DNA of 64,000 nt from an uncultured Candidatus Saccharibacteria bacterium (GTDB taxonomy: Bacteria > Patescibacteriota > Minisyncoccia > Phycocordibacterales > EsbW-18): NCBI GenBank assembly GCA_964447415.1, contig CAYUSN010000001.1, positions 121,727 to 185,726 on the forward strand. The letters are read 5' to 3'. This document shows, piece after piece, positions 46,183 to 62,951 of this stretch. The notes under the pieces are model-generated. The model had not been told where the DNA came from, did not search any database, and saw nothing but the letters and a program-made list of their open reading frames with translations. The position numbers were made by a program, and so were the translations under genes. How positions within the stretch are numbered: the stretch's first letter is position 1; every line of letters starts with the position of its first letter.

Positions 46183-46611
46183 GTGATAGAAAAGCGAAAA
46201 AACATCCTCCTACTCGCGCTTTTGGTGATTGCATTTGCTGTGTTAACGCTTGATCGGATTGCGCAGGACAACTATCTGTACTGGACGTATTGGTGGTACG
46301 ACATCATGATGCACTTTCTCGGCGGGTTTCTTGTCGCCGGCATCGCGCTGTGGTTTCTTGCGCGCTTTTCACACGAGTCAGTGCGCGGCGCACGCCGTGC
46401 GCTGTATGTTGCAGTCAGTACCGCTATTATCGTCGGTATCGGATGGGAATTTTTTGAATATTTTTCCGGAGCACTTCTGCAGCAGGAGGGAAGCGTTGTC
46501 GGTGACACTGCGCTTGATTTGGTGATGGACACGGTCGGTGCGCTCGTGATGTGGGGAATTCTTGCAAAAATTTTTTTCGTACAGATTATTGACGACATGC
46601 GTCCGCTATGA
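46183..46611 (+). CDS. Small polytopic membrane protein (VanZ-like topology), hypothetical.
   Basis: Four predicted TM helices. Overlaps the next gene by 4 nt. Confidence 0.5.
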   Translation: MIEKRKNILLLALLVIAFAVLTLDRIAQDNYLYWTYWWYDIMMHFLGGFLVAGIALWFLARFSHESVRGARRALYVAVSTAIIVGIGWEFFEYFSGALLQQEGSVVGDTALDLVMDTVGALVMWGILAKIFFVQIIDDMRPL

Positions 46612-47987
46612 GCACCGAGCAATCTTCAAAAGACGTACGAATTGTGTTTCATGGCGGCGTCGGTACAGTGACGGGTGCAAATTTTCTGCTTGCATCGTCG
46701 CAGATACAAATTCTCGTTGACTGCGGTCTGCTGCAGGGTCAGCGCATGTGCAGTGCCGAAAACAGCGACCCGTTTCCGTACAATCCCGCAGAGATGCAGG
46801 CGCTTCTTGTGACGCACTCACACATTGATCATATCGGGCGCATTCCGAAATTGGTGAAGGATGGTTTTAGGGGGACGATTTATTCCACGCTCGAAACAAA
46901 AAAACTTGCCGAAGTGATGCTGCCGGACGCAGCGCAACTCTTGATGCAGGAGTCGCTCACCTGCGGAACACCGCCGCCATATACGGCTGACGATGTCGCG
47001 CCTATTTTTGAGAAGTGGGAAACGATGCCGTACTACGCGTCATTTCCGCTCGGTGACTTTACCGTAAAATTCCAAAACGCGGGCCATATTCTCGGTTCCG
47101 CGATGGTTGAGATCGTTCATCCGAAGGTGGGAAAGATTCTCTTTACCGGCGATCTCGGCAATTCACCCTCACTGCTTCTCAAGGATACCGATGCGGTTGA
47201 AGAGGTGAACTACCTTGTTGTGGAATCAGTCTACGGCGACCGTGTGCATGAGGTTGTTGAGAACCGTCTCGGGCAGCTCGAAGACATCGTTGAACGGACA
47301 ATTTTACACGGAGGCACACTGCTGATTCCGACATTCTCCGTCGAGCGTACTCAAAACATTCTATACGAGATTAATCTGCTTGTTGAAAAAGACCGTATAC
47401 CGCATATTCCCGTCTTTCTTGACTCACCGCTTGCAACAAAGGTGACGGAGATTTACCGCAACGCAAAAACCGAATACAACGAATCGGTACAGCGCACGAT
47501 GGCGAAGGGGGATGACATTTTTGCGTTTGAAGGACTGCGTGTCGTTGAGTCGCCGGAGGAATCGCAGGAGATTCACAACATGTCGGGACCGAAAATCATC
47601 ATCGCGGGTTCGGGAATGTCCACCGGCGGACGTGTGTTGAGCCACGAGAAGCACTATCTCTCCGATCCGTCCTGCACGCTGCTTATCGTCGGCTATCAGG
47701 CACCAGGAAGTTTGGGTCGCCAGCTTGTAGACGGGGCAAAAGACGTACAGATTGAGAAAGAAGAGGTGGCCGTGCGCGCGAAAGTGGTTTCGGTGTCGGG
47801 ATACTCGGGGCATCGCGACGTCAACGGCCTGCTCGAGTTCGTCAACAGCACCAACACGTCGCTAAAACGCGCGTTTGTAGTGATGGGCGAGCCGAAAAGT
47901 TCCCAGTTTTTTGCACAACGGCTGCGTGATTACTATGGCGTTGACGCGTATGTGCCTACCGCAGGAGAAACTGTTGAACTTCCGTAG
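46608..47987 (+). CDS. Metallo-beta-lactamase fold ribonuclease with a beta-CASP domain (CPSF/RNase J-like).
   Basis: HSHIDHIG (HxHxDH) motif and downstream beta-CASP motifs (D…H…H). Confidence 0.8.
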   Translation: MSTEQSSKDVRIVFHGGVGTVTGANFLLASSQIQILVDCGLLQGQRMCSAENSDPFPYNPAEMQALLVTHSHIDHIGRIPKLVKDGFRGTIYSTLETKKLAEVMLPDAAQLLMQESLTCGTPPPYTADDVAPIFEKWETMPYYASFPLGDFTVKFQNAGHILGSAMVEIVHPKVGKILFTGDLGNSPSLLLKDTDAVEEVNYLVVESVYGDRVHEVVENRLGQLEDIVERTILHGGTLLIPTFSVERTQNILYEINLLVEKDRIPHIPVFLDSPLATKVTEIYRNAKTEYNESVQRTMAKGDDIFAFEGLRVVESPEESQEIHNMSGPKIIIAGSGMSTGGRVLSHEKHYLSDPSCTLLIVGYQAPGSLGRQLVDGAKDVQIEKEEVAVRAKVVSVSGYSGHRDVNGLLEFVNSTNTSLKRAFVVMGEPKSSQFFAQRLRDYYGVDAYVPTAGETVELP

Positions 47988-51524: not shown

Positions 51525-51575
51525 TAAGAATTCAAAGAATGGGTGCCAATACCCATGAAAAGGAGGAGGCACGCC

Positions 51576-52628
51576 ATGTGCTCTTTGAAAACTCAAACAG
51601 CAACAAGTTCACGACCAGGCTGTGCGTGGATTACAGTGAATCGCGTGTGTAACTTCAGGTGCTCCTGGTGTTACGCGCAGGGTACCGAGTACAACCCAAA
51701 CCAAAGTATGACGCTCGAGCTTGCAGAAGCACTCGTGTCTCTTCTCGAATCATTGGGTATCCGAGACGTTACAGTGATTGGAGGAGAGCCGACTCTCTGG
51801 AAACACCTGATTGAATTCAACGCGCTCTGTGCTGGCAGGGGAATCAAGACGGGGCTCGTAACAAACGCCATGCGTTTCGGAATCGATGGTTTTTGGGAGC
51901 GCTACATGAAGGCTCCCAACAATCACGCGGGCGTCTCGGTGAAGGCGTTTGATGAAAAAAGCCTTCAAGCGGTTGCCGGTGTTGCGCGCTTCGATCTCTC
52001 AAAAAAGGGCATCGAGCGTGCGGTCAAGTTCTTCAACTGTGGCGTAAGCACTGTCTACAACACCGCTTGTGCGGACTCTCTCGTAGAGATTGCCCGATTT
52101 GCGATGGAGTGTGGGGCCAGGTCCTTGAGAATAAGCCCCTGTACCCCGGCACTTTCCGGAAAGAAGGTCGACGGATCCTACGTGGTGGAGCCTCATACGC
52201 TCGTGAAGAACGTGGTAGGTATCTATCCGCAACTTCATGAGATCACGCACGGACAGGTCAGTTTCTCGATGAAGCTCCCGCTATGTCTGTGGCCGCGGGA
52301 ATTCATCGACACCCTGATTCGGCGAAACCAAATCAGCACGGTTTGCCAGCTCCAACACCGATCAGGTATTATCTTCGATACGGACGGGCATCTTGCAATC
52401 TGCAACAGTTTGTTCGACTATCCGGTCGGTAAGTACGGCGAGGACTTTAATGATGCTGACTCGCTTCTTGCCGTCGTGAACAGACCTGACGTTGTGGCTC
52501 TCTACGACAGACTTACTTCCTATCCGTCGAAGAAGTGTGTCGAGTGTGAGAAGTTCAACATCTGTGCGGGCGGATGTCCTCTGTACTGGACACTCTACCA
52601 TCCTGAGGAGCTCATCCCCGGCTGGTGA
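51576..52628 (+). CDS. Radical SAM / SPASM-domain peptide-modifying enzyme.
   Basis: CNFRCSWC (Cx3Cx2C) radical-SAM cluster. C-terminal SPASM cysteines (…CVECEKFNICAGGCP). AAAGGAGGAGG Shine-Dalgarno before ATG at 51576. The longer ORF reaches 51543. Confidence 0.8.
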   Translation: MCSLKTQTATSSRPGCAWITVNRVCNFRCSWCYAQGTEYNPNQSMTLELAEALVSLLESLGIRDVTVIGGEPTLWKHLIEFNALCAGRGIKTGLVTNAMRFGIDGFWERYMKAPNNHAGVSVKAFDEKSLQAVAGVARFDLSKKGIERAVKFFNCGVSTVYNTACADSLVEIARFAMECGARSLRISPCTPALSGKKVDGSYVVEPHTLVKNVVGIYPQLHEITHGQVSFSMKLPLCLWPREFIDTLIRRNQISTVCQLQHRSGIIFDTDGHLAICNSLFDYPVGKYGEDFNDADSLLAVVNRPDVVALYDRLTSYPSKKCVECEKFNICAGGCPLYWTLYHPEELIPGW

Positions 52629-52669
52629 GAGAACCCCGCCAATCGAAGCACCGAAAGGAGGTGATACAA

Positions 52670-52825
52670 ATGGAGTTGCTGCTCGAGATTCCGGTCACGG
52701 GCATTCAGCCGACCTGTCGTCCCATCGGGCTCAGCACCGCCTCTCGAGAGGGGCAGTGTGATCCGCCGCCGGACGACTGCGCGAATCCGGACGACTGCGA
52801 CTGTGACTGCGCCCCGCCGCACTGA
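52670..52825 (+). CDS. Candidate RiPP precursor peptide, 51 aa. Leader MELLLEIPVTGIQPT followed by a Cys/Asp/Pro-rich core with 6 Cys.
   Basis: 13-nt perfect Shine-Dalgarno GAAAGGAGGTGAT 4 nt before ATG. Lies 42 nt after the radical-SAM stop. Followed by a terminator. About 62% GC. Confidence 0.55.
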   Translation: MELLLEIPVTGIQPTCRPIGLSTASREGQCDPPPDDCANPDDCDCDCAPPH

Positions 52826-52857
52826 CGGCACCCTCTCTGGGGGCACCAGAGACATCC

Positions 52858-52897
52858 CTCGGCAAGAAGATTGCCGAGGGATTTATTTTTTGTCACA
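52858..52897 (+). terminator. Intrinsic terminator (CCCTCGGCAA-gaagat-TGCCGAGGG then ATTTATTTTTTG).
   Basis: Hairpin plus T tract after the precursor ORF. Confidence 0.6.
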
Positions 52898-52905
52898 ATG
52901 GGGCA

Positions 52906-53550
52906 ATGAACGAGGTAATTAGTCTATCTTTTAAATACTCAAAAATTCTTGAAAAAGAAAGAATTACTAACACGATCAAACGTCTTAGTTGGTACAAAGA
53001 GAATAAGTATAACGTTGATTTAATCGGTTTCCCAAAAGAACTCAATAGAGAAAGGATTTTTTCTGTTTCTGATACTGATATTTCGAACGCTATTGATGCT
53101 GAATACGATGAGACAAAATTTGTTGAATCAGAAAGGTCATTAAGAGAACTTTTTCCCCTATATCACGACCGGCTCACATGTTTTTTGGATGAGATAAAAC
53201 TGTCCATTATTCCGTCCATTGTTGTTCAGCTGACCATGTATGGTATGGGCGGGAGCTATTCTTTACCAAACAAAGCGATAGTGAATATCGCAAAATATTA
53301 CGGCGTCGGATTACTGAGAAACATGCTCCATGAAATTATTCACCTGCATATTCAACATCTTATCGACAGGTACAAACTCAGCCAGTGGCAGAAAGAAAGG
53401 GTTGTTGACTTGCTTATAGAGAAACTTGTTCCAGAACTCGCAAAGCAACAAAAAATACCAATTGATATTTCTGTTGTTGATGAAGCGTTCAACAAATATT
53501 ATCCGGATGTACCACGAGTAATACAAAATATTGCCGTCTCCCACGGATAA
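52906..53550 (+). CDS. Hypothetical protein with an HExxH motif (HEIIHLH), AT-rich.
   Basis: ORF with HExxH. About 36% GC, unlike its neighbours. Confidence 0.5.
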   Translation: MNEVISLSFKYSKILEKERITNTIKRLSWYKENKYNVDLIGFPKELNRERIFSVSDTDISNAIDAEYDETKFVESERSLRELFPLYHDRLTCFLDEIKLSIIPSIVVQLTMYGMGGSYSLPNKAIVNIAKYYGVGLLRNMLHEIIHLHIQHLIDRYKLSQWQKERVVDLLIEKLVPELAKQQKIPIDISVVDEAFNKYYPDVPRVIQNIAVSHG

Positions 53551-58860: not shown

Positions 58861-59532
58861 TCAGAGACCGGACCAGAGGAAGCGGTGCGTCCAGTTGGAG
58901 GAAGTATCGTTGCGGTACGAACCGCAATTTACGCCGGGCGTGCAGTAGTCACCGTCGGGATACATGGATGTGTTCTTGTACCGTGTGGCATTGCCGGTTG
59001 CCATGTATCCGGCATGCACGTGCGTGCCGGTCCAGGCACAGTCACGACCGGAATCATTGACCATGGTGCCGAGCGACTTGATGTTGTATGTCCCGGTACT
59101 TGAAGTGGCGATTGGAAATTCTGCAGTTGAGTTCATCGACGCGTGCGTATACTGCATGACACCGCGAATTTTCAACTCACCGTAGTCGATGAGATACACT
59201 TTTTGTACTTCGCACACTTCAGAACCTGAGGACACGAGGGCACGTCGCCCATAGAGACGATTGGTCTCTTGTGGAGAGTTGCTTCTCGTGAAGATACCGC
59301 GGAACGAGACCAAAAGCGTACTGGTGTTGTCCCAGTCGAGGAAATTGCCGGTGGCACCGTTGTAGCACGCACCGCTATGGAAACCGCAGGTGAGCGCGGG
59401 TGACTGTCCCGTGTTTCCCGAGGGGGGCAACAGATTTGCGCGGTATTGGAACGTGGAAGCACTCGACAATGGAACAGAAGTTCCAAGGAGTGCACCGATG
59501 AGAAGCGGAATGAGCCGGTGCAGACGCATCAC
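58861..59532 (-). CDS. Secreted hypothetical protein, 223 aa, Cys-containing.
   Basis: Signal peptide MMRLHRLIPLLIGALLGTSVPLSSA. Confidence 0.55.
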   Translation of the reverse strand: MMRLHRLIPLLIGALLGTSVPLSSASTFQYRANLLPPSGNTGQSPALTCGFHSGACYNGATGNFLDWDNTSTLLVSFRGIFTRSNSPQETNRLYGRRALVSSGSEVCEVQKVYLIDYGELKIRGVMQYTHASMNSTAEFPIATSSTGTYNIKSLGTMVNDSGRDCAWTGTHVHAGYMATGNATRYKNTSMYPDGDYCTPGVNCGSYRNDTSSNWTHRFLWSGL

Positions 59533-59562
59533 TCTCTCCTTTCTTTGTGTGGTGTTGAGGGA

Positions 59563-60261
59563 CTACTGCGTACGGGTAGTTGAAGCAACGATCTCGACAA
59601 GTTTCATGAATTCGGAGCGGGGAAGTTGAGACACCCGGATGGCGGTCATTCCGAAGGATTCTGGAAAATATGCAGAAGCACGTTCCCAGTAGCCATCTTC
59701 GGTAATCGTGTTAACGATCACCACTTCTCGTCCGGAAACCTTTTGTACTTTGACGCGTTCAACCGCCACGTCAGTTGTGTCGTAATCAGAAAACGATCGG
59801 CCGATGAAGATGTTTGCAGTGTCACCATTGGAAAGGCGATAGATGTAACTTTTGTTTGAACTCATTACACCGCCGTCACAGGCGATTGTGCCGTTGCTTG
59901 GGCTCTCAATATCGAGTACGTACTCTTCCGGCAACTCAATGTCGAGAGTCAAAACACCCGCCTCACTGTCCGGCACAATCCACGACTTGCGCTCCGCACA
60001 CAGATCGTCAAACGTCGTGTACTTCTCGGGGATGGGTGTGCCCTCAGGGGCGAGGAAGATGCCGCCGATTTCGCCGACGAAGCGCGGCTTCCCGCGCTCG
60101 GCGATCACAGCCGGGTCGGTGGGAGGAACCTTCCAGAGTTGATCGTTGCGGCTCTCGCGGTCCGCGAAGAGTTTCGGGTTGAGGTACTGCACGCCGATGT
60201 AACCGGCGAGCACGAGGCCGAGGAACAAGACCGCGGCCGAGATTTTGCTGCTGACGTTCAT
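59563..60261 (-). CDS. Membrane-anchored hypothetical protein, 232 aa.
   Basis: Start MNVSSK with AGAAAGGAAA Shine-Dalgarno. N-terminal TM anchor ISAAVLFLGLVLAGYIGV. The longer ORF reaches 60375. Confidence 0.5.
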   Translation of the reverse strand: MNVSSKISAAVLFLGLVLAGYIGVQYLNPKLFADRESRNDQLWKVPPTDPAVIAERGKPRFVGEIGGIFLAPEGTPIPEKYTTFDDLCAERKSWIVPDSEAGVLTLDIELPEEYVLDIESPSNGTIACDGGVMSSNKSYIYRLSNGDTANIFIGRSFSDYDTTDVAVERVKVQKVSGREVVIVNTITEDGYWERASAYFPESFGMTAIRVSQLPRSEFMKLVEIVASTTRTQ

Positions 60262-60538
60262 GGTGTTTCCTTTCTGGCCGTATGGCCGGTTAGGTGCTGC
60301 GTGAGAGTGACCCTTTCTGCTGTCAATGAACCTCTGAGGCGCACTGTACAGAAGTGAGGATGAAATAAATTTCAAACGCGTTTGTGTTGATAAGGTGACT
60401 CCTCCCAGCGTAGCAAACTAAGATAAAGAAAAGGTAAATTCATTGCATTCACAGCATTGACTTTCTGTGTATCAGTGGTAACTTACTTTTAAGTAACCAA
60501 TCCTGGTTACTCTGATGTTCTTTGAAAGGAGCTGCGTC

Positions 60539-60739
60539 GTGAGCAAAAGCAACGTAGTCCCCGCCGCGGTACCGGACCAGCCGGACACCGCACCCAACAC
60601 CACCGAAGGTCACCGGCCCACCAGGATCAAGCAGGTGCCCGACAACGACCCGCACGGAGCCGAAGTGCTCAAGCCGGGTTCGCCCGGCCGCCGGTTCTCC
60701 CCCGAACGGAGGATGGGCAAGGACGGCTGTGGCTACTAG
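60539..60739 (+). CDS. Candidate RiPP precursor peptide, 66 aa, GTG start, Pro/Asp/basic-rich with a single Cys. C-terminus …RRMGKDGCGY.
   Basis: GAAAGGAG Shine-Dalgarno 8 nt upstream of GTG. Ends 72 nt before the second radical-SAM/SPASM gene, with a hairpin-plus-U attenuator in between. About 62% GC. Confidence 0.45.
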   Translation: MSKSNVVPAAVPDQPDTAPNTTEGHRPTRIKQVPDNDPHGAEVLKPGSPGRRFSPERRMGKDGCGY

Positions 60740-60810
60740 AGCCACACCGAGGCCTCACAGCCCTCCTGATCGCCACGGCGGTCAGGAGGGTTTCTACTTA
60801 TAAGGAGGTT

Positions 60811-62139
60811 GTGGTGAAAAACAAACCGAAGTGGAGCAATTTTCAGACAAGAGCGGTGCTTCCAAACGGGAGCATACTCCTGAAGAGTACGCTTACCGGT
60901 GCCGTGGTTTCGATAGGCTGCCATGCCGAGACCGCGGTGACCAGTTGGATTGACGGGAAGGAAGAAACCATCCCGTCGGTCGTCAAGACACTCCTGGATC
61001 CCAATGTTGGTCTACTCGTTCCTGCTGAGTACGATGAGTACTCCGCATGGCGGGACAAGCTTTTGGATCGACGGAACAACGCCGCACACACCTTTACCCT
61101 CCACTTTCTCCCAACGACACTGTGCCAGCTTGAATGCTCGTACTGTTTCGAGAACGGGAGTCAGCGGATGAAGGGTATGCGGCCGGAGCTTGTGGGGACG
61201 TCGCGCGAGTGGCTTGCAACTTACCTTGCGAACCACCCGGAGATTGACACGGTGCGCCTCGCGCTTTTCGGGGGAGAACCTCTCCTGCAAAAAGACATCG
61301 TCAAGCTCGGGCTGGAAGCATTTCATTCACTCGCTCGCGAGAGAGGGCTCGACTTCTGGACCGAACTGACCAGCAACGCCGAGCTGCTCAACGAAGCGAC
61401 TGCCAAGATGCTGTCCCAACACGAGTGGCGTCGGGTTCAGGTTACGCTCGACGGTCCGGAGGAGGTGCATGATGCTCGGAGACATGGTCGGAACATGCGA
61501 CCGACGTTTGAGAGAATCATGCGCAATGTGCAGATGCTTCTCTCGACCGACTACATTCCAAAGGTCGACATCAGAATTTCCTTCGACCTTTCGAATGCCG
61601 ATCGGGTTCCGGAACTGATTCGGTACCTTGCCGGACTCGACAGGCAGCACCGCATCAACCTGAGTCTTGGGCTCATTACACCAACACTCCAGAACCGTGA
61701 CAATGCGAAAAACGAAGCGCTTCTTGCCGAGAAGGCGCTCGCGGTGTGGAAACTGGCGAAACAGCACGGCTTTGAAATCCCGGGGGAGTTCATCACGGGT
61801 CCGTGGTGTGTGGCCATAGCCAAGCACTCGGCGGTTCTACAACCGGACGGCACCTTGCAGAAGTGCTTCTGTACCGTCGGTCGAGAAGGGTACAACTTCG
61901 GAACGATTTACGAACAACCGAAGGGCGGGTATCTGTACGACTCGCGATTCGAACACTTCCGCCGAACGGATCAGTGCATCGAGGAGAAGTGCCAGTATCT
62001 GCCCATGTGTGGCGGCGGGTGCATCCACGATGCCATAGTTGCGGCCGGCGGCGCAGAAGGGGCTCGCAACCGTTTTTGCCAGAAGACCCTTCTTACCAAA
62101 ATGAACAAAGGTCTCCTGGTACTCAATCATGTTTCCTGA
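60811..62139 (+). CDS. Radical SAM / SPASM-domain peptide-modifying enzyme (second, distinct paralog).
   Basis: CQLECSYC (Cx3Cx2C) radical-SAM cluster. C-terminal SPASM cysteines (…CIEEKCQYLPMCGGGC). AAGGAGG Shine-Dalgarno before GTG. Confidence 0.8.
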   Translation: MVKNKPKWSNFQTRAVLPNGSILLKSTLTGAVVSIGCHAETAVTSWIDGKEETIPSVVKTLLDPNVGLLVPAEYDEYSAWRDKLLDRRNNAAHTFTLHFLPTTLCQLECSYCFENGSQRMKGMRPELVGTSREWLATYLANHPEIDTVRLALFGGEPLLQKDIVKLGLEAFHSLARERGLDFWTELTSNAELLNEATAKMLSQHEWRRVQVTLDGPEEVHDARRHGRNMRPTFERIMRNVQMLLSTDYIPKVDIRISFDLSNADRVPELIRYLAGLDRQHRINLSLGLITPTLQNRDNAKNEALLAEKALAVWKLAKQHGFEIPGEFITGPWCVAIAKHSAVLQPDGTLQKCFCTVGREGYNFGTIYEQPKGGYLYDSRFEHFRRTDQCIEEKCQYLPMCGGGCIHDAIVAAGGAEGARNRFCQKTLLTKMNKGLLVLNHVS

Positions 62140-62167
62140 TGCTCTTTTGCAACACACGTTGTTGCGA

Positions 62168-62200
62168 GGTCACCACCCGGGCGGGAGGTGACCTTTTTTG
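62168..62200 (+). terminator. Intrinsic terminator (GGTCACCACCCGG-gcg-GGAGGTGACC then TTTTTTG).
   Basis: Hairpin plus T6 after the second radical-SAM gene. Confidence 0.55.
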
Positions 62201-62213
62201 TTACCATGGGTTT

Positions 62214-62951
62214 ATGTTCGAACAACATTTACCACACTATATTCATACGTTTGAAAATGATTCCCGGTGGCGGACACGTACGTCAGACCACTACATTTTT
62301 CACTATTTTGAAAACTCAGCCGCCGAAAAGGACATAGACCACATTATAGAGAGGCAAGAAAAGGCATACGCAAAAATTATGTCGTTTCTAAGTGTTCCGG
62401 AACCGAGGCGTCCCATTGAGTATTTTTTCTATCCCGACGAGGACACAAAAAAGGAACTCATGGGTGATGATTGGTACGCGCAGTCTATTTACAACGAGTT
62501 TCGGGTCCACGTGTTGTATACCGAAAAAAATAAACCGCTCGGGGAACACGAAGACACACACCTCCTCTCGCTTCCGTGGGGTCAATCAATCGCATTTTTT
62601 GCCGAAGGGTTAGCTGAATATATGGTCGGACATGCGTGGGACGGGACACCGCATCTACAGTACGTACGAGAAGGGTACGAGAAAAAACTCTACCCGACAC
62701 TTGAGAGTTTTATGCGTCACGACGCGTGGCTTGAAACGGATGACACATACGCTATTTATTTTTATTCTCTTGCGGGGGTGTTTACGTCATTTCTCATTTC
62801 CCGGTTTGGAAAAGAAAAATTTGAAATGGTGTACACACAGCTGAACAGAAAAAATACCAAAGAAGAAAACAGTACGGTGTGTGAGTCAGTACTGGGAACA
62901 AGTATTTTATCCCTGGAGACAGTATTCAAGGATTCTTTAAAAAATGTTTAA
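62214..62951 (+). CDS. Putative zinc metallopeptidase, 245 aa: HExxH (GEHEDTH) plus a downstream Glu (AEGLAEY).
   Basis: HEDTH followed about 18 aa later by ExxxE. Start MFEQHL at 62214. The 5' part of the 61803 ORF overlaps the radical-SAM gene and is an artefact. Confidence 0.5.
   Translation: MFEQHLPHYIHTFENDSRWRTRTSDHYIFHYFENSAAEKDIDHIIERQEKAYAKIMSFLSVPEPRRPIEYFFYPDEDTKKELMGDDWYAQSIYNEFRVHVLYTEKNKPLGEHEDTHLLSLPWGQSIAFFAEGLAEYMVGHAWDGTPHLQYVREGYEKKLYPTLESFMRHDAWLETDDTYAIYFYSLAGVFTSFLISRFGKEKFEMVYTQLNRKNTKEENSTVCESVLGTSILSLETVFKDSLKNV

Follow-up and report, generated by a model that had tools for sequence, protein, structure and literature searches.

The question raised by positions 60515-62951 of the 64,000-nucleotide stretch of DNA analysed here (hereafter the window) is whether a short peptide gene, a radical-SAM/SPASM enzyme and an HExxH protein lying side by side constitute a RiPP-type locus and, if so, which chemistry the peptide would undergo. 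An earlier note on this DNA had proposed such a locus, and every feature that it listed could be read from the sequence in its place. The order peptide, hairpin, enzyme, terminator and HExxH protein is repeated in 23 independent genome loci, a recurrence that puts the pattern far beyond chance. The peptide, the radical-SAM enzyme and the adjoining zinc peptidase are a real conserved cassette of the CPR/Patescibacteria, outside every named family. With a genuine precursor conserved across loci and a C-terminal motif that does not vary, the RiPP-type claim is borne out, and the locus is probably a RiPP cassette widespread in Patescibacteria (Parcubacteria/Paceibacteria-type CPR bacteria), with CteB/PapB/QhpD-type chemistry as the favoured one. 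All features described below lie on the plus strand unless otherwise indicated.

The precursor peptide

The precursor peptide gene (60539..60739) opens with a GTG at 60539, 7 nt downstream of a Shine-Dalgarno sequence, AAGGAG (60526..60531), that is read directly from the sequence. It encodes 66 residues, among which 10 Pro, 7 Gly, 6 Arg, 5 Asp and one Cys (C64), and ends in RRMGKDGCGY directly before the stop codon, GKDGCGY being its last seven residues. An ORF ending in the same way was found upstream in 22/22 genome loci having upstream DNA and in 21 of the 24 testable metagenome loci, and a Shine-Dalgarno match of at least 4 nt precedes 17 of 22 orthologous peptide genes. The same C-terminus is common to 61 called proteins, and gene callers annotated the precursor ORF in a Logan contig. 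None of the NCBIfam models matched the peptide.

It may be asked whether this small ORF is translated at all, the true gene being instead the minus-strand ORF 60449-60745, as the earlier note had allowed for, or the region acting as a non-coding leader RNA ahead of the enzyme gene. The region is overlapped by this 98-aa minus-strand ORF, but only one relative, the 91%-identical L001, has a counterpart of it, and it gave no family match in NCBIfam or Pfam, while an Rfam search of the region gave no match, which argues against an RNA leader. The plus-strand peptide, for its part, is conserved at the amino-acid level: among 36 distinct DNA tails, its invariant sites show synonymous codon variation, and the position of the stop is fixed with all three stop codons in use. 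Given this amino-acid conservation, the synonymous changes and the lack of conservation of the minus-strand ORF, the untranslated reading is extremely improbable and can be considered as effectively refuted.

The core M59-Y66 (MGKDGCGY; 60713..60736), of the form hydrophobic-G-K-D-x-C-G-Y-COOH, is the candidate site of modification. Across 79 distinct tails, D (-5), C (-3), G (-2) and Y (-1) were each found in 79/79, the stop codon being fixed directly after the Tyr; position -8 is L/F/M/V/Y, position -7 is G73/S5/N1 and position -6 is K75/Q2/L2. A paralogous cassette in locus L082, which includes its own peptidase paralogue, encodes a peptide ending in GKDSCCAAYN, in which the Tyr is not terminal (a single example). 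This peptide retains L-G-K-D-S-C but has no CGY at its end, an indication that the chemical element common to the two is the Asp/Cys part. Upstream of the core, a leader motif, E42-F53 (EVLKPGSPGRRF; 60662..60697), follows the family pattern h-h-K-x-G-x3-4-[RL]-R-F-G; alignment A3 shows no variation at G47, and conservation of 90% or more at K45 and R52. This motif is a candidate recognition sequence for the RRE-like domain of the enzyme.

Cassette conservation and the intervening stem-loop

Seen from the enzyme side, the peptidase gene comes next, immediately 3', at 23/23 loci, and the enzymes of these genomes share no more than 45-60% identity. Within the +/-4 kb flanks of these 23 loci, no other conserved neighbour was found beyond peptide, enzyme and gluzincin, and no transporter or immunity gene was found linked to the cassette, so that an intracellular role and export through an unlinked system are both possible. 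Besides, the cassette is retained in very small genomes of many lineages. The parallel that had been drawn with the layout of another locus of the window is not upheld: the locus at 51543-53550 runs enzyme then peptide, its enzyme is devoid of an RRE, and its proteins are, the rSAM core excepted, unrelated to those of the present cassette.

Between the peptide and enzyme genes lies a stem-loop of 15 pairs closed by a 4-nt loop, CACG (60759..60792), and followed by a weak U-rich tail (UUUCUACUU; 60793-60799). The folding energy of the 71-nt spacer is -33.9 kcal/mol (z = -4.0 versus shuffles). The hairpin noticed here in the window is kept in position in 23/23 loci, with stems of 8-22 pairs (median 13) in spacers of 50-89 nt, a median dG of -24.5 and a median z of -3.5; its position is conserved and its sequence is not. 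A U-rich tail (4 or more U among the next 10 nt) is present in 11/23 loci and the U-tract is weak in 12/23, so that termination at the stem-loop is not assured. A simple consensus terminator scanner picked up neither this hairpin nor the one that follows the enzyme gene (62166-62193). The stem-loop is presented as a candidate attenuator or mRNA-stabilising hairpin. In the proposed model, a two-gene transcript would carry the precursor (41-66 aa) and the RRE-fused radical-SAM/SPASM maturase, and the stem-loop, acting as a partial terminator or a 3'-stabiliser, would probably raise the peptide message above the enzyme message.

The radical-SAM/SPASM enzyme

The gene coding for the radical-SAM/SPASM peptide maturase (60811..62139; 442 aa) is preceded by a Shine-Dalgarno sequence, AAGGAGG (60802..60808), likewise visible by reading the DNA, and starts at GTG 60811, an alternative GTG at 60814 (441 aa) having the better Shine-Dalgarno spacing; such a site precedes 21/22 orthologues. 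The Pfam Radical_SAM model matched above its gathering score (3e-13), and every source-named one of 194 homologues comes from Patescibacteria. The general traits of the class are present, namely the CxxxCxxC motif, the SPASM Cys pattern and a co-conserved adjacent precursor. More precisely, the ligands of the SAM-binding [4Fe-4S] cluster, C105-x3-C109-x2-C112 (61123..61146), are invariant in 30 homologues, as are all eight Cys of the SPASM region, which would hold the auxiliary Fe-S clusters (61807..62079; C333-x13-G347-x4-C352, C354, C389-x4-C394-x5-C400-x3-C404, C423). Compared to the class pattern used (C-x9-15-G-x4-C ... C-x2-C-x5-C-x3-C ... C, two auxiliary clusters), the first spacing of the four-Cys run is x4 instead of x2. 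The Pfam SPASM model did not match the enzyme, and in a profile alignment this segment aligns with the SPASM segment of CteB.

The AF2 model of the enzyme (pLDDT 86.9) displays an N-terminal RRE-like domain (aa about 11-89; 60841..61077) made of three strands then three helices (E12-16, E21-26, E32-36, H37-47, H58-62, H76-89). This agrees with an HMM alignment to CteB that begins at CteB residue 47, and with the full-length Foldseek match to the RRE-containing CteB; Pfam PqqD gave no match in the enzyme. The domain would bind the leader, and its likely target is the leader motif (h-h-K-x-G...R-F-G).

In the NCBIfam search, the enzyme groups with peptide-maturase radical-SAM/SPASM families, as had been expected from its motifs. 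Its best matches are maturases of Cys-containing peptides, all below cutoff: TIGR04463 (148 bits vs 525), CefB (139 vs 600), geopeptide (134 vs 400), Clo7bot and PapB (NF047865, 97 vs 340), together with QhpD (TIGR03906, 83 vs 453) and SCIFF (TIGR03974, 74 vs 425). Scores so far below the curated cutoffs make function transfer weak. The alignment to the PapB model spans the whole PapB length (1.7e-27), the best PDB profile match is CteB (3e-20), and CteB is also the nearest solved structure by fold in Foldseek, at 8e-18 with a TM of 0.68 across the full length, RRE-like region included. Among the six CteB "catalytic-site-proximity" residues (PMC10288494), mapped by hand on the profile alignment, four are kept (F113, F153, T187, T212), whereas positions 5 and 6 are F353 and C354 instead of His and Gln. 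The extra invariant Cys354 may leave the auxiliary cluster fully ligated, unlike in CteB.

The adjoining metallopeptidase

The last gene of the locus (62214..62951) encodes an apparently cytoplasmic gluzincin-type zinc metallopeptidase of 245 aa, a candidate leader peptidase. Its HExxH motif, H112-E-D-T-H116 (62547-62561), is followed by E131-G-L-A-E135 (62604-62618), and none of the residues H112, E113, H116, E131, G132 and E135 varies across 32 homologues and 23 neighbours. No Pfam or NCBIfam model matched the window peptidase; PF13485 (Peptidase_MA_2) gave weak matches in 17/32 relatives (best 7e-6). A thermolysin-like catalytic fold is present and EryP (PDB 7v9n) is among the Foldseek matches, so that the protein first noticed for its HExxH motif can be described as having a gluzincin peptidase fold in addition to its constant place downstream of the enzyme.

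To treat it as just the third member of a single operon, as the initial layout implied, would however be too simple, since it lies behind a terminator, has no Shine-Dalgarno sequence and belongs to a family also found without the enzyme. An intrinsic-terminator-like hairpin followed by U6 (62166..62199; GGUCACC-A-CCC...GGG-A-GGUGACC, z = -2.6) separates it from the enzyme gene, and a GC stem, mostly with a U-run, occurs there in 22/22 loci examined. An extended -10-like element, TGtTACCAT (62199..62207), lies 6 nt before the peptidase ATG; this consensus match, weak in the window and clearer in relatives, could serve as the promoter of a peptidase mRNA without a leader. A Shine-Dalgarno sequence was found in 0/28 peptidase genes. 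In 12/28 of them, a hexamer matching the -10 consensus at 5 or more of its 6 positions ends 4-14 nt upstream of the ATG, compared to 0/22 peptide genes and 1/22 enzyme genes. In addition, the peptidase gene is lower in GC and GC3 than the peptide and enzyme genes in 22/22 loci, markedly so for GC. The peptidase would thus be transcribed separately, apparently without an mRNA leader.

This arrangement could mean that the peptidase stands outside the pathway, a mobile two-gene module of peptide and enzyme having come to sit, or having been kept, time and again in front of a resident housekeeping metallopeptidase gene, with the leader removed otherwise or never. The separating terminator and -10-like element, the missing Shine-Dalgarno sequence and the drop in GC all fit such a history, as does the absence of the enzyme from 20 of the 51 informative peptidase-seeded loci, some of whose peptidases are 81-87% identical to linked copies: the stand-alone peptidase of L035 and the linked one of L030 share 87% identity, L031 shares the terminator hairpin of L005 yet is without the module, and in L072 the enzyme is reduced to a C-terminal remnant. 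Given these enzyme-free copies, the job of the peptidase may be wider or different. Nevertheless, a chance neighbour fits poorly with an adjacency that is complete on the enzyme side despite the divergence of the enzymes and the lack of any other conserved neighbour, with the duplication of the peptidase along with the L082 cassette, or with the presence of the same peptidase family beside two other RRE-radical-SAM peptide systems (L035, L051). Enzyme and peptidase identities also co-vary (Pearson 0.84), which shared phylogeny alone could explain, and RiPP clusters commonly include a leader peptidase gene transcribed from a promoter of its own. A peptidase foreign to the pathway is hence considered doubtful.

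Candidate chemistry

In the favoured reading, the radical-SAM active site would act on the invariant core hydrophobic-G-K-D-x-C-G-Y-COOH, most likely by forming a thioether of the CteB/PapB/QhpD type that ties the one Cys, which never varies, to a carbon close by. PapB and QhpD join Cys to Asp/Glu side-chain carbons, and the beta-carbon of the invariant Asp two residues upstream would be the favoured acceptor, with Gly or Tyr as alternatives. The candidate donor Cys (-3) and acceptor Asp (-5) are both invariant; a single Cys is available here, against the several usual in known sactipeptide and ranthipeptide (thioether) systems. The gluzincin would then probably take off the leader, plausibly by a cut before the always-hydrophobic residue at -8. 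However, an Asp-Cys thioether leaves the absolute invariance of Gly-Tyr and the stop right after Tyr unexplained, which counts against it. Another radical-SAM core reaction could be envisaged, such as a C-C/C-O Tyr-ring cross-link (cyclophane/ryptide/streptide-like), an anSME-type conversion of Cys to formylglycine, or an epimerisation. A Tyr-ring cross-link would account for the invariant Tyr, the matches to anSME, SuiB, ChlB, DynA, AmcB, GrrM and YhhB-type enzymes are significant, and sequence-to-function rules are known to be unreliable in the radical-SAM superfamily (PMC10288494). Yet these matches are weaker than those to CteB and to the maturases of Cys-rich peptides, the nearest families and the nearest structure being thioether formers on Cys peptides, so that reactions of this kind appear unlikely here. 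As to the individual reactions, the known three-residue cyclophane motifs need residues past the aromatic one while the Tyr is last here, and the sulfatase-type C-x-P/A-x-R motif is absent. Lys or Asp would be possible cross-link partners of the Tyr. The Lys at -6 is not invariant, being Q or L in 4/79 tails.

The terminal Tyr also lies behind the analogy with mycofactocin that had been raised from the window. The enzyme would in that case modify the C-terminal Tyr as in mycofactocin or PQQ formation, for example by an MftC-type oxidative decarboxylation, after which the Cys close by might react with it, the peptidase excising a small molecule derived from Cys-Gly-Tyr as an intracellular cofactor or signal. 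The mycofactocin precursor tail is ...DGMCGVY. The fixed terminal Tyr and the D-G-C-G-Y end, similar to this tail (Gly-Val-Tyr end, Val-Tyr core of MftA; PMC7491314), speak for it, along with the lack of a linked transporter or immunity gene, the maintenance of the cassette in very small genomes and an apparently cytoplasmic enzyme and peptidase, neither having a hydrophobic N-terminus when the sequences are read by eye. The analogy is weakened by the enzyme itself, which is CteB/PapB-like with a fused RRE-like domain instead of a separate MftB/PqqD: neither the MftC (TIGR03962, cutoff 265) nor the PqqE model appears in the list of its 25 best NCBIfam matches, which goes down to E = 4e-12, and PqqE by fold comes only at rank 35 in Foldseek (7e-6, vs 8e-18 for CteB). 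By contrast, TIGR03962 does appear, at 1.6e-11, among the matches of the radical-SAM enzyme encoded elsewhere in the window (51543-52628). Moreover, a search with the NCBIfam MftA model left all 23 peptides unmatched even with a threshold of E <= 10, the flanks of +/-4 kb contain no conserved MftB/D/E/F-like neighbour, the Tyr is internal in the one paralogous peptide of L082, and the penultimate Gly makes MftC cyclisation onto a Val beta-carbon impossible. A mycofactocin-like route is thus given a low probability. It is equally improbable that the strictly C-terminal Asp-x-Cys-Gly-Tyr is altered by an undescribed radical-SAM chemistry, for example a bond between the sulfur of the Cys and the last Tyr, decarboxylated or not, and is trimmed by the peptidase to a small intracellular cofactor or signal; if true, these minimal-genome symbiont-type bacteria would make a cofactor-like product derived from a peptide, the third of its kind after PQQ and mycofactocin.

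Comparison with known systems

Stem-loops between precursor and modification genes occur in bacteriocin/RiPP operons, for instance in lantibiotic and subtilosin clusters. Here as well, a strong hairpin comes directly behind the precursor stop codon and ahead of the enzyme Shine-Dalgarno sequence in 23/23 loci, but with a U-rich tail in only about half of them. The peptidase resembles the clan MA(E) gluzincins (M9 collagenase catalytic domain, M30, M1; PF13485) by its HExxH motif and the downstream Glu in E-G-L-A-E, its gluzincin relatives including EryP, an M1-type lanthipeptide leader peptidase. It differs from known gluzincins in being a minimal single domain of 245 aa, with 7-15% identity to them and no signal peptide seen.

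With mycofactocin, the cassette shares a short precursor ending in a Tyr after Gly with a nearby Asp-Gly...Cys-Gly, a radical-SAM/SPASM enzyme followed by a product-releasing peptidase (a candidate one here), and the lack of an exporter. MftE is a creatininase-family enzyme, whereas the peptidase here is a gluzincin; the enzyme is not MftC-like, the RRE-like domain is fused while MftB is separate, and MftD and MftF neighbours are absent. The end is Gly-Tyr in 79/79 tails, and not Val-Tyr as in mycofactocin (PMC7491314).

The enzyme aligns over nearly its full length with the maturases of TIGR04463 (rSAM_vs_C_rich), NF038107 (CefB, Cys-every-fifth) and TIGR04280 (geopeptide), which are uncharacterised maturases of short Cys-containing peptides, but its scores are 1/4 to 1/3 of the curated cutoffs, and the precursors there are Cys-rich repeats, unlike the present one. 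With the thioether-forming CteB/SCIFF and PapB (freyrasin) maturases of sacti- and ranthipeptides, it shares a putative N-terminal RRE, a radical-SAM core, a SPASM domain and a small Cys-containing precursor encoded beside it, and the invariant Asp-x-Cys of this precursor is reminiscent of the PapB and QhpD systems, in which Cys is linked to Asp/Glu. Compared to CteB, the identity is only 17-18%, two of the six active-site-proximity residues differ and Cys354 is an additional invariant residue; compared to the CteB/PapB systems at large, the precursor contains a lone Cys in place of several and closes with a Gly-Tyr that never varies, the peptidase beside the enzyme is a gluzincin, and the named ones among the 194 homologues come from Patescibacteria only.

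Precursor peptide gene

All the features that the earlier note listed for the cassette at 60515-62951 (plus strand) were found exactly as described there. The cassette opens with a Shine-Dalgarno (SD) sequence AAGGAG (60526-60531, plus strand) located 7 nt before a GTG at 60539, from which a plus-strand ORF of 66 aa (60539-60739) extends, rich in Pro, Gly, Arg, and Asp, containing a single Cys, and ending in GKDGCGY-stop. A genome survey in which one genome per species was scanned returned 23 loci, 22 of them with upstream DNA, and all 22 display a small upstream plus-strand ORF whose tail reads [G/S/N][K/Q/L]-D-x-C-G-Y-stop and whose end lies 50-89 nt from the enzyme start codon. Since an equivalent ORF was also detected in 21 of the 24 testable metagenome loci, conservation of the peptide-enzyme pair and of its C-terminal motif, on which the earlier note had made its reading depend, is borne out. 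Besides, the 61 called proteins retrieved with a peptide profile all carry this tail and, where their source names them, are 'hypothetical'. Judging by this conservation, the small ORF at 60539-60739 is a genuine gene. The overlapping minus-strand ORF 60449-60745, which had been put forward as the possible real gene, has a counterpart solely in a 91% relative and is ruled out.

When the tails from genome loci, metagenome loci, and called proteins are pooled (79 distinct tails) and numbered back from the C-terminal Tyr, the residues Asp(-5), Cys(-3), Gly(-2), and Tyr(-1) never change, a hydrophobic residue always occupies position -8, position -7 is Gly, Ser, or Asn, and position -6 is Lys in 75 of them. 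Both or all of the synonymous codons are used for these invariant residues and stop codons of all three kinds are in use, which argues for selection acting on the protein and on where it ends. Farther upstream, the peptide contains a second conserved motif, h-h-K-x-G-x3-4-[R/L]-R-F-G, and its N-terminal part is variable. This layout of a conserved motif and a C-terminal tail with a free N-terminus looks like the usual leader-plus-core anatomy. No match was obtained for the peptide in NCBIfam and Pfam, even when all 23 peptides were scanned at E <= 10, and no RNA element from Rfam matched the region at E <= 1.

Radical-SAM/SPASM enzyme

The enzyme gene is preceded by the SD AAGGAGG (60802-60808, plus strand) and runs on the plus strand from GTG 60811/60814 to 62139, encoding 442 aa with the motif C105-x3-C109-x2-C112 and a SPASM-type cysteine pattern. 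GTG 60811, the first in frame, is just 2 nt past the SD; GTG 60814, which is 5 nt past it and yields 441 aa, as many as in the 90% homologue P0001, is the likelier start.

Pfam recognises the radical-SAM core of the enzyme, and the closest NCBIfam models (TIGR04463, CefB, geopeptide, Clo7bot, PapB, QhpD type, and SCIFF maturase) are those of maturases of Cys-containing peptides. As its NCBIfam scores all amount to only one quarter to one third of the curated cutoffs, the enzyme falls into no described equivalog. The three radical-SAM cysteines and eight cysteines of the SPASM region are invariant in the homologue alignment. A profile search of PDB sequences returned CteB at the top (3e-20), followed by TigE (entry 8vpo, whose identity comes from the Foldseek comparison), ChlB, anSME, SkfB, and SuiB. 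The AF2 model (pLDDT 86.9) begins with three strands and three helices resembling a RiPP recognition element (RRE), and Foldseek aligned it with CteB over the full length (8e-18, TM 0.68), PqqE appearing at rank 35. Finally, six 'catalytic-site-proximity' residues are defined for CteB in PMC10288494; with CteB as the sole comparison enzyme, the profile-search alignment maps them to F113, F153, T187, and T212, which are kept, and to F353 and C354, which differ. Taken together, the NCBIfam matches, the invariant cysteines, the PDB profile, the AF2 model with its Foldseek comparison, and the proximity residues argue for the architecture of a CteB/PapB-type RRE-rSAM-SPASM maturase. The enzyme is thus not like MftC or PqqE, two of the subfamilies first considered, CteB being its best match by both profile and fold.

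Hairpins and transcription units

The 71-nt spacer between the peptide and enzyme genes holds a hairpin of 15 pairs (60759-60792, plus strand; -33.9 kcal/mol, z = -4.0) with the tail UUUCUACUU. Such a stem, of 8-22 pairs (median 13; median dG -24.5, median z -3.5), is found in the 50-89 nt spacer of all 23 loci, at a constant position and with divergent sequences. Attenuator or stabiliser hairpins are known from bacteriocin operons, and by analogy the hairpin described here may act as one or the other. As regards the partial terminator put forward earlier, the stem is general and a U-rich tail occurs in about half of the loci (11 of 23), its action being presumed.

Between the enzyme and peptidase genes, an intrinsic-terminator-like hairpin followed by U6 is located at 62166-62199 (plus strand; z = -2.6 on folding). 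Unexpectedly, a GC stem is present at this place in all 22 loci examined, with a U-run after most of them. Both hairpins were established by folding, and a simple promoter/terminator scanner detected neither of them in the window. Further, an SD precedes 17/22 peptide genes, 21/22 enzyme genes, and none of the peptidase genes (0/28), whereas a TATAAT-like hexamer ending 4-14 nt before the ATG, often TG-extended, is seen at 12/28 peptidase genes versus 0-1/22 for the other genes. The terminator-like stem, the lack of an SD, and this hexamer suggest that the peptidase gene is a separate, probably leaderless, transcription unit with its own promoter. The hexamer is placed directly after the terminator and 6-12 nt ahead of the peptidase gene (62166-62216 in the window; same spacer in loci L001-L022).

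A composition step also crosses the cassette: in 22/22 loci (L001-L022), GC is higher in the peptide and enzyme genes than in the peptidase gene, with mean GC values of 0.54 and 0.48 versus 0.38 and GC3 of 0.50 versus 0.37. The GC of the peptidase gene is below that of its own flanks, themselves ranging from 27 to 65% GC, in 21/22 loci.

Peptidase and its linkage to the cassette

The last gene (62214-62951, plus strand) encodes a gluzincin-type peptidase of 245 aa with HEDTH and EGLAE, in whose family H112, E113, H116, E131, G132, and E135 are invariant. The window protein has no match in Pfam and NCBIfam, Peptidase_MA_2 weakly matched 17 of its 32 relatives, and a profile search against PDB sequences gave nothing meaningful; fold comparison alone succeeded. 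The AF2 model is very confident (pLDDT 96.3).

In the enzyme-seeded survey, the enzyme gene is directly followed by that of the peptidase in 23/23 loci, and no other gene within the +/-4 kb flanks is common to more than four of them. In the peptidase-seeded metagenome survey, the enzyme is present in 31 loci and absent from 20 loci whose upstream DNA spans 1.45 kb or more. The stand-alone peptidases retain the catalytic motifs and are interspersed among the linked ones, that of locus L035 being 87% identical to the linked one of L030. L031 (1786-1886) still shares its terminator hairpin with the linked relative L005 and has neither the peptide nor the enzyme gene, and L072 (2740-2946) keeps a 68-aa remnant of the enzyme C-terminus beside the peptidase. 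This interspersion, together with the L031 hairpin and the L072 remnant, indicates a two-gene peptide-enzyme module gained or lost beside a persisting peptidase. That the peptidase is merely a fixed neighbour of this module would fit its probably separate transcription and its stand-alone copies, but seems rather unlikely in view of other radical-SAM genes next to the same family.

Indeed, a different PqqD/RRE-rSAM gene and a candidate peptide, MKIMKSSTYSKPIVTRAGSTP, lie upstream of a member of this peptidase family in L035 (1431-3735), and in L051 (2366-5203) a Cys-rich peptide ending in ...SVCACGCSC and another radical-SAM gene lie downstream of one. In L082 (2727-5000, minus strand), a full paralogous cassette was found, consisting of a 33-aa peptide, MKKIRKVRFVRRAIPVARRTKALGKDSCCAAYN, ending in ...ALGKDSCCAAYN, a hairpin, and radical-SAM and peptidase paralogues (303 and 153 bits, respectively); this single example and a stand-alone gene for the window-type peptidase are oriented convergently. 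The peptidase family is accordingly read, from these gene contexts, as serving radical-SAM peptide systems, and it probably has a broader role as well.

Other ORFs of the window

The parallel layout with the first locus (51543-53550), formerly held to strengthen both, does not stand, as the gene order differs and the proteins are unrelated. The first locus comprises a radical-SAM/SPASM-like enzyme of 361 aa (51543-52628) without RRE and with weak MoaA, anSME, PapB, MftC, and StsB matches, an overlapping downstream ORF of 66 aa (52625-52825), rich in Cys, Asp, and Pro and ending in ...CDPPPDDCANPDDCDCDCAPPH, and a HEIIH protein of 214 aa (52906-53550). The two enzymes have solely the radical-SAM core in common, and hhalign detected no homology between the two HExxH proteins (probability 0.1). 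In L045, an ORF located 1.1 kb downstream of a stand-alone peptidase shares 42% identity with the 214-aa protein. Another candidate for the first locus, ORF 46608-47987, was discarded, since its translation looks like that of a metallo-beta-lactamase/beta-CASP protein. Two adjoining minus-strand ORFs (58861-60375) immediately upstream of the cassette have no family match and are not kept beside it in other loci; one encodes 223 aa, including several Cys and an N-terminus resembling a signal sequence, the other 270 aa in which there is a single hydrophobic segment.

Distribution and annotation

The enzyme has 194 database homologues (43-90% identity), and those named by their source are all from Patescibacteria (Pacebacteria/Paceibacterota, Kaiserbacteria, Minisyncoccota, and Parcubacteria). 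Many cassette-bearing TPA metagenome-assembled genomes are titled 'uncultured Candidatus Saccharibacteria' (L001, L004, L005, L008, L011-L016, L018, and L019); as all other named relatives are Parcubacteria/Paceibacteria-type lineages, these titles may be generic. No curated model describes the cassette, and its proteins are annotated at source only as 'hypothetical protein' or, generically, as 'radical SAM protein'. Literature searches for the tail motif, for CPR/Parcubacteria with radical-SAM/RiPP, and for Patescibacteria with ranthipeptide/sactipeptide found nothing relevant.

Proposed mechanism and product

What is shown comprises the class and fold of enzyme and peptidase, the conserved leader motif, core, and hairpins, and the adjacency of the genes. 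On this basis, the RRE of the enzyme would bind the leader motif of the precursor, and the radical-SAM centre would abstract a hydrogen in the core, where the single Cys would form a thioether. As acceptor, the invariant Asp is favoured, since PapB and QhpD make Cys-Asp links and the paralogous L082 peptide keeps G-K-D-x-C without C-G-Y. The gluzincin would then cut off the leader, plausibly in front of the hydrophobic residue at -8, thermolysin-type enzymes having a hydrophobic P1' preference. Both enzymes look cytoplasmic, and the cassette has no linked transporter, immunity gene, or regulator.

The thioether model nevertheless leaves the invariance of Gly-Tyr and its terminal position unaccounted for, and for this reason reactions centred on the Tyr keep a small probability, about equal for an MftC-like decarboxylation and for an aromatic cross-link. 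The Cys-Asp thioether is still the preferred product.

Significance and comparison with known systems

Few specialised products are expected of Patescibacteria (CPR), whose genomes are very small, yet many of their lineages keep the peptide-enzyme pair, whose eight-residue tail never changes at its key positions; its database homologues number in the hundreds, with enzymes from 45% identity up. With a 66-aa peptide, one enzyme, and a 245-aa peptidase, this compact system could reveal new radical-SAM peptide chemistry as well as a function conserved within an uncultured phylum. Moreover, it can seed a family model, adds a new subfamily of gluzincins associated with several radical-SAM peptide systems, and clearly illustrates how a module is gained and lost beside a fixed neighbour gene.

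By the membership tests of the named families, the cassette belongs to none of them. Its likeness to mycofactocin, which the earlier note had drawn from the C-terminus, is real for the peptide tail and confined to it, the enzyme not being MftC-like. The cassette is classed as a Patescibacteria-restricted radical-SAM/SPASM RiPP system with a single-Cys, C-terminal-Tyr core and a gluzincin partner, which would work like the sacti-/ranthipeptide or SCIFF-type systems.
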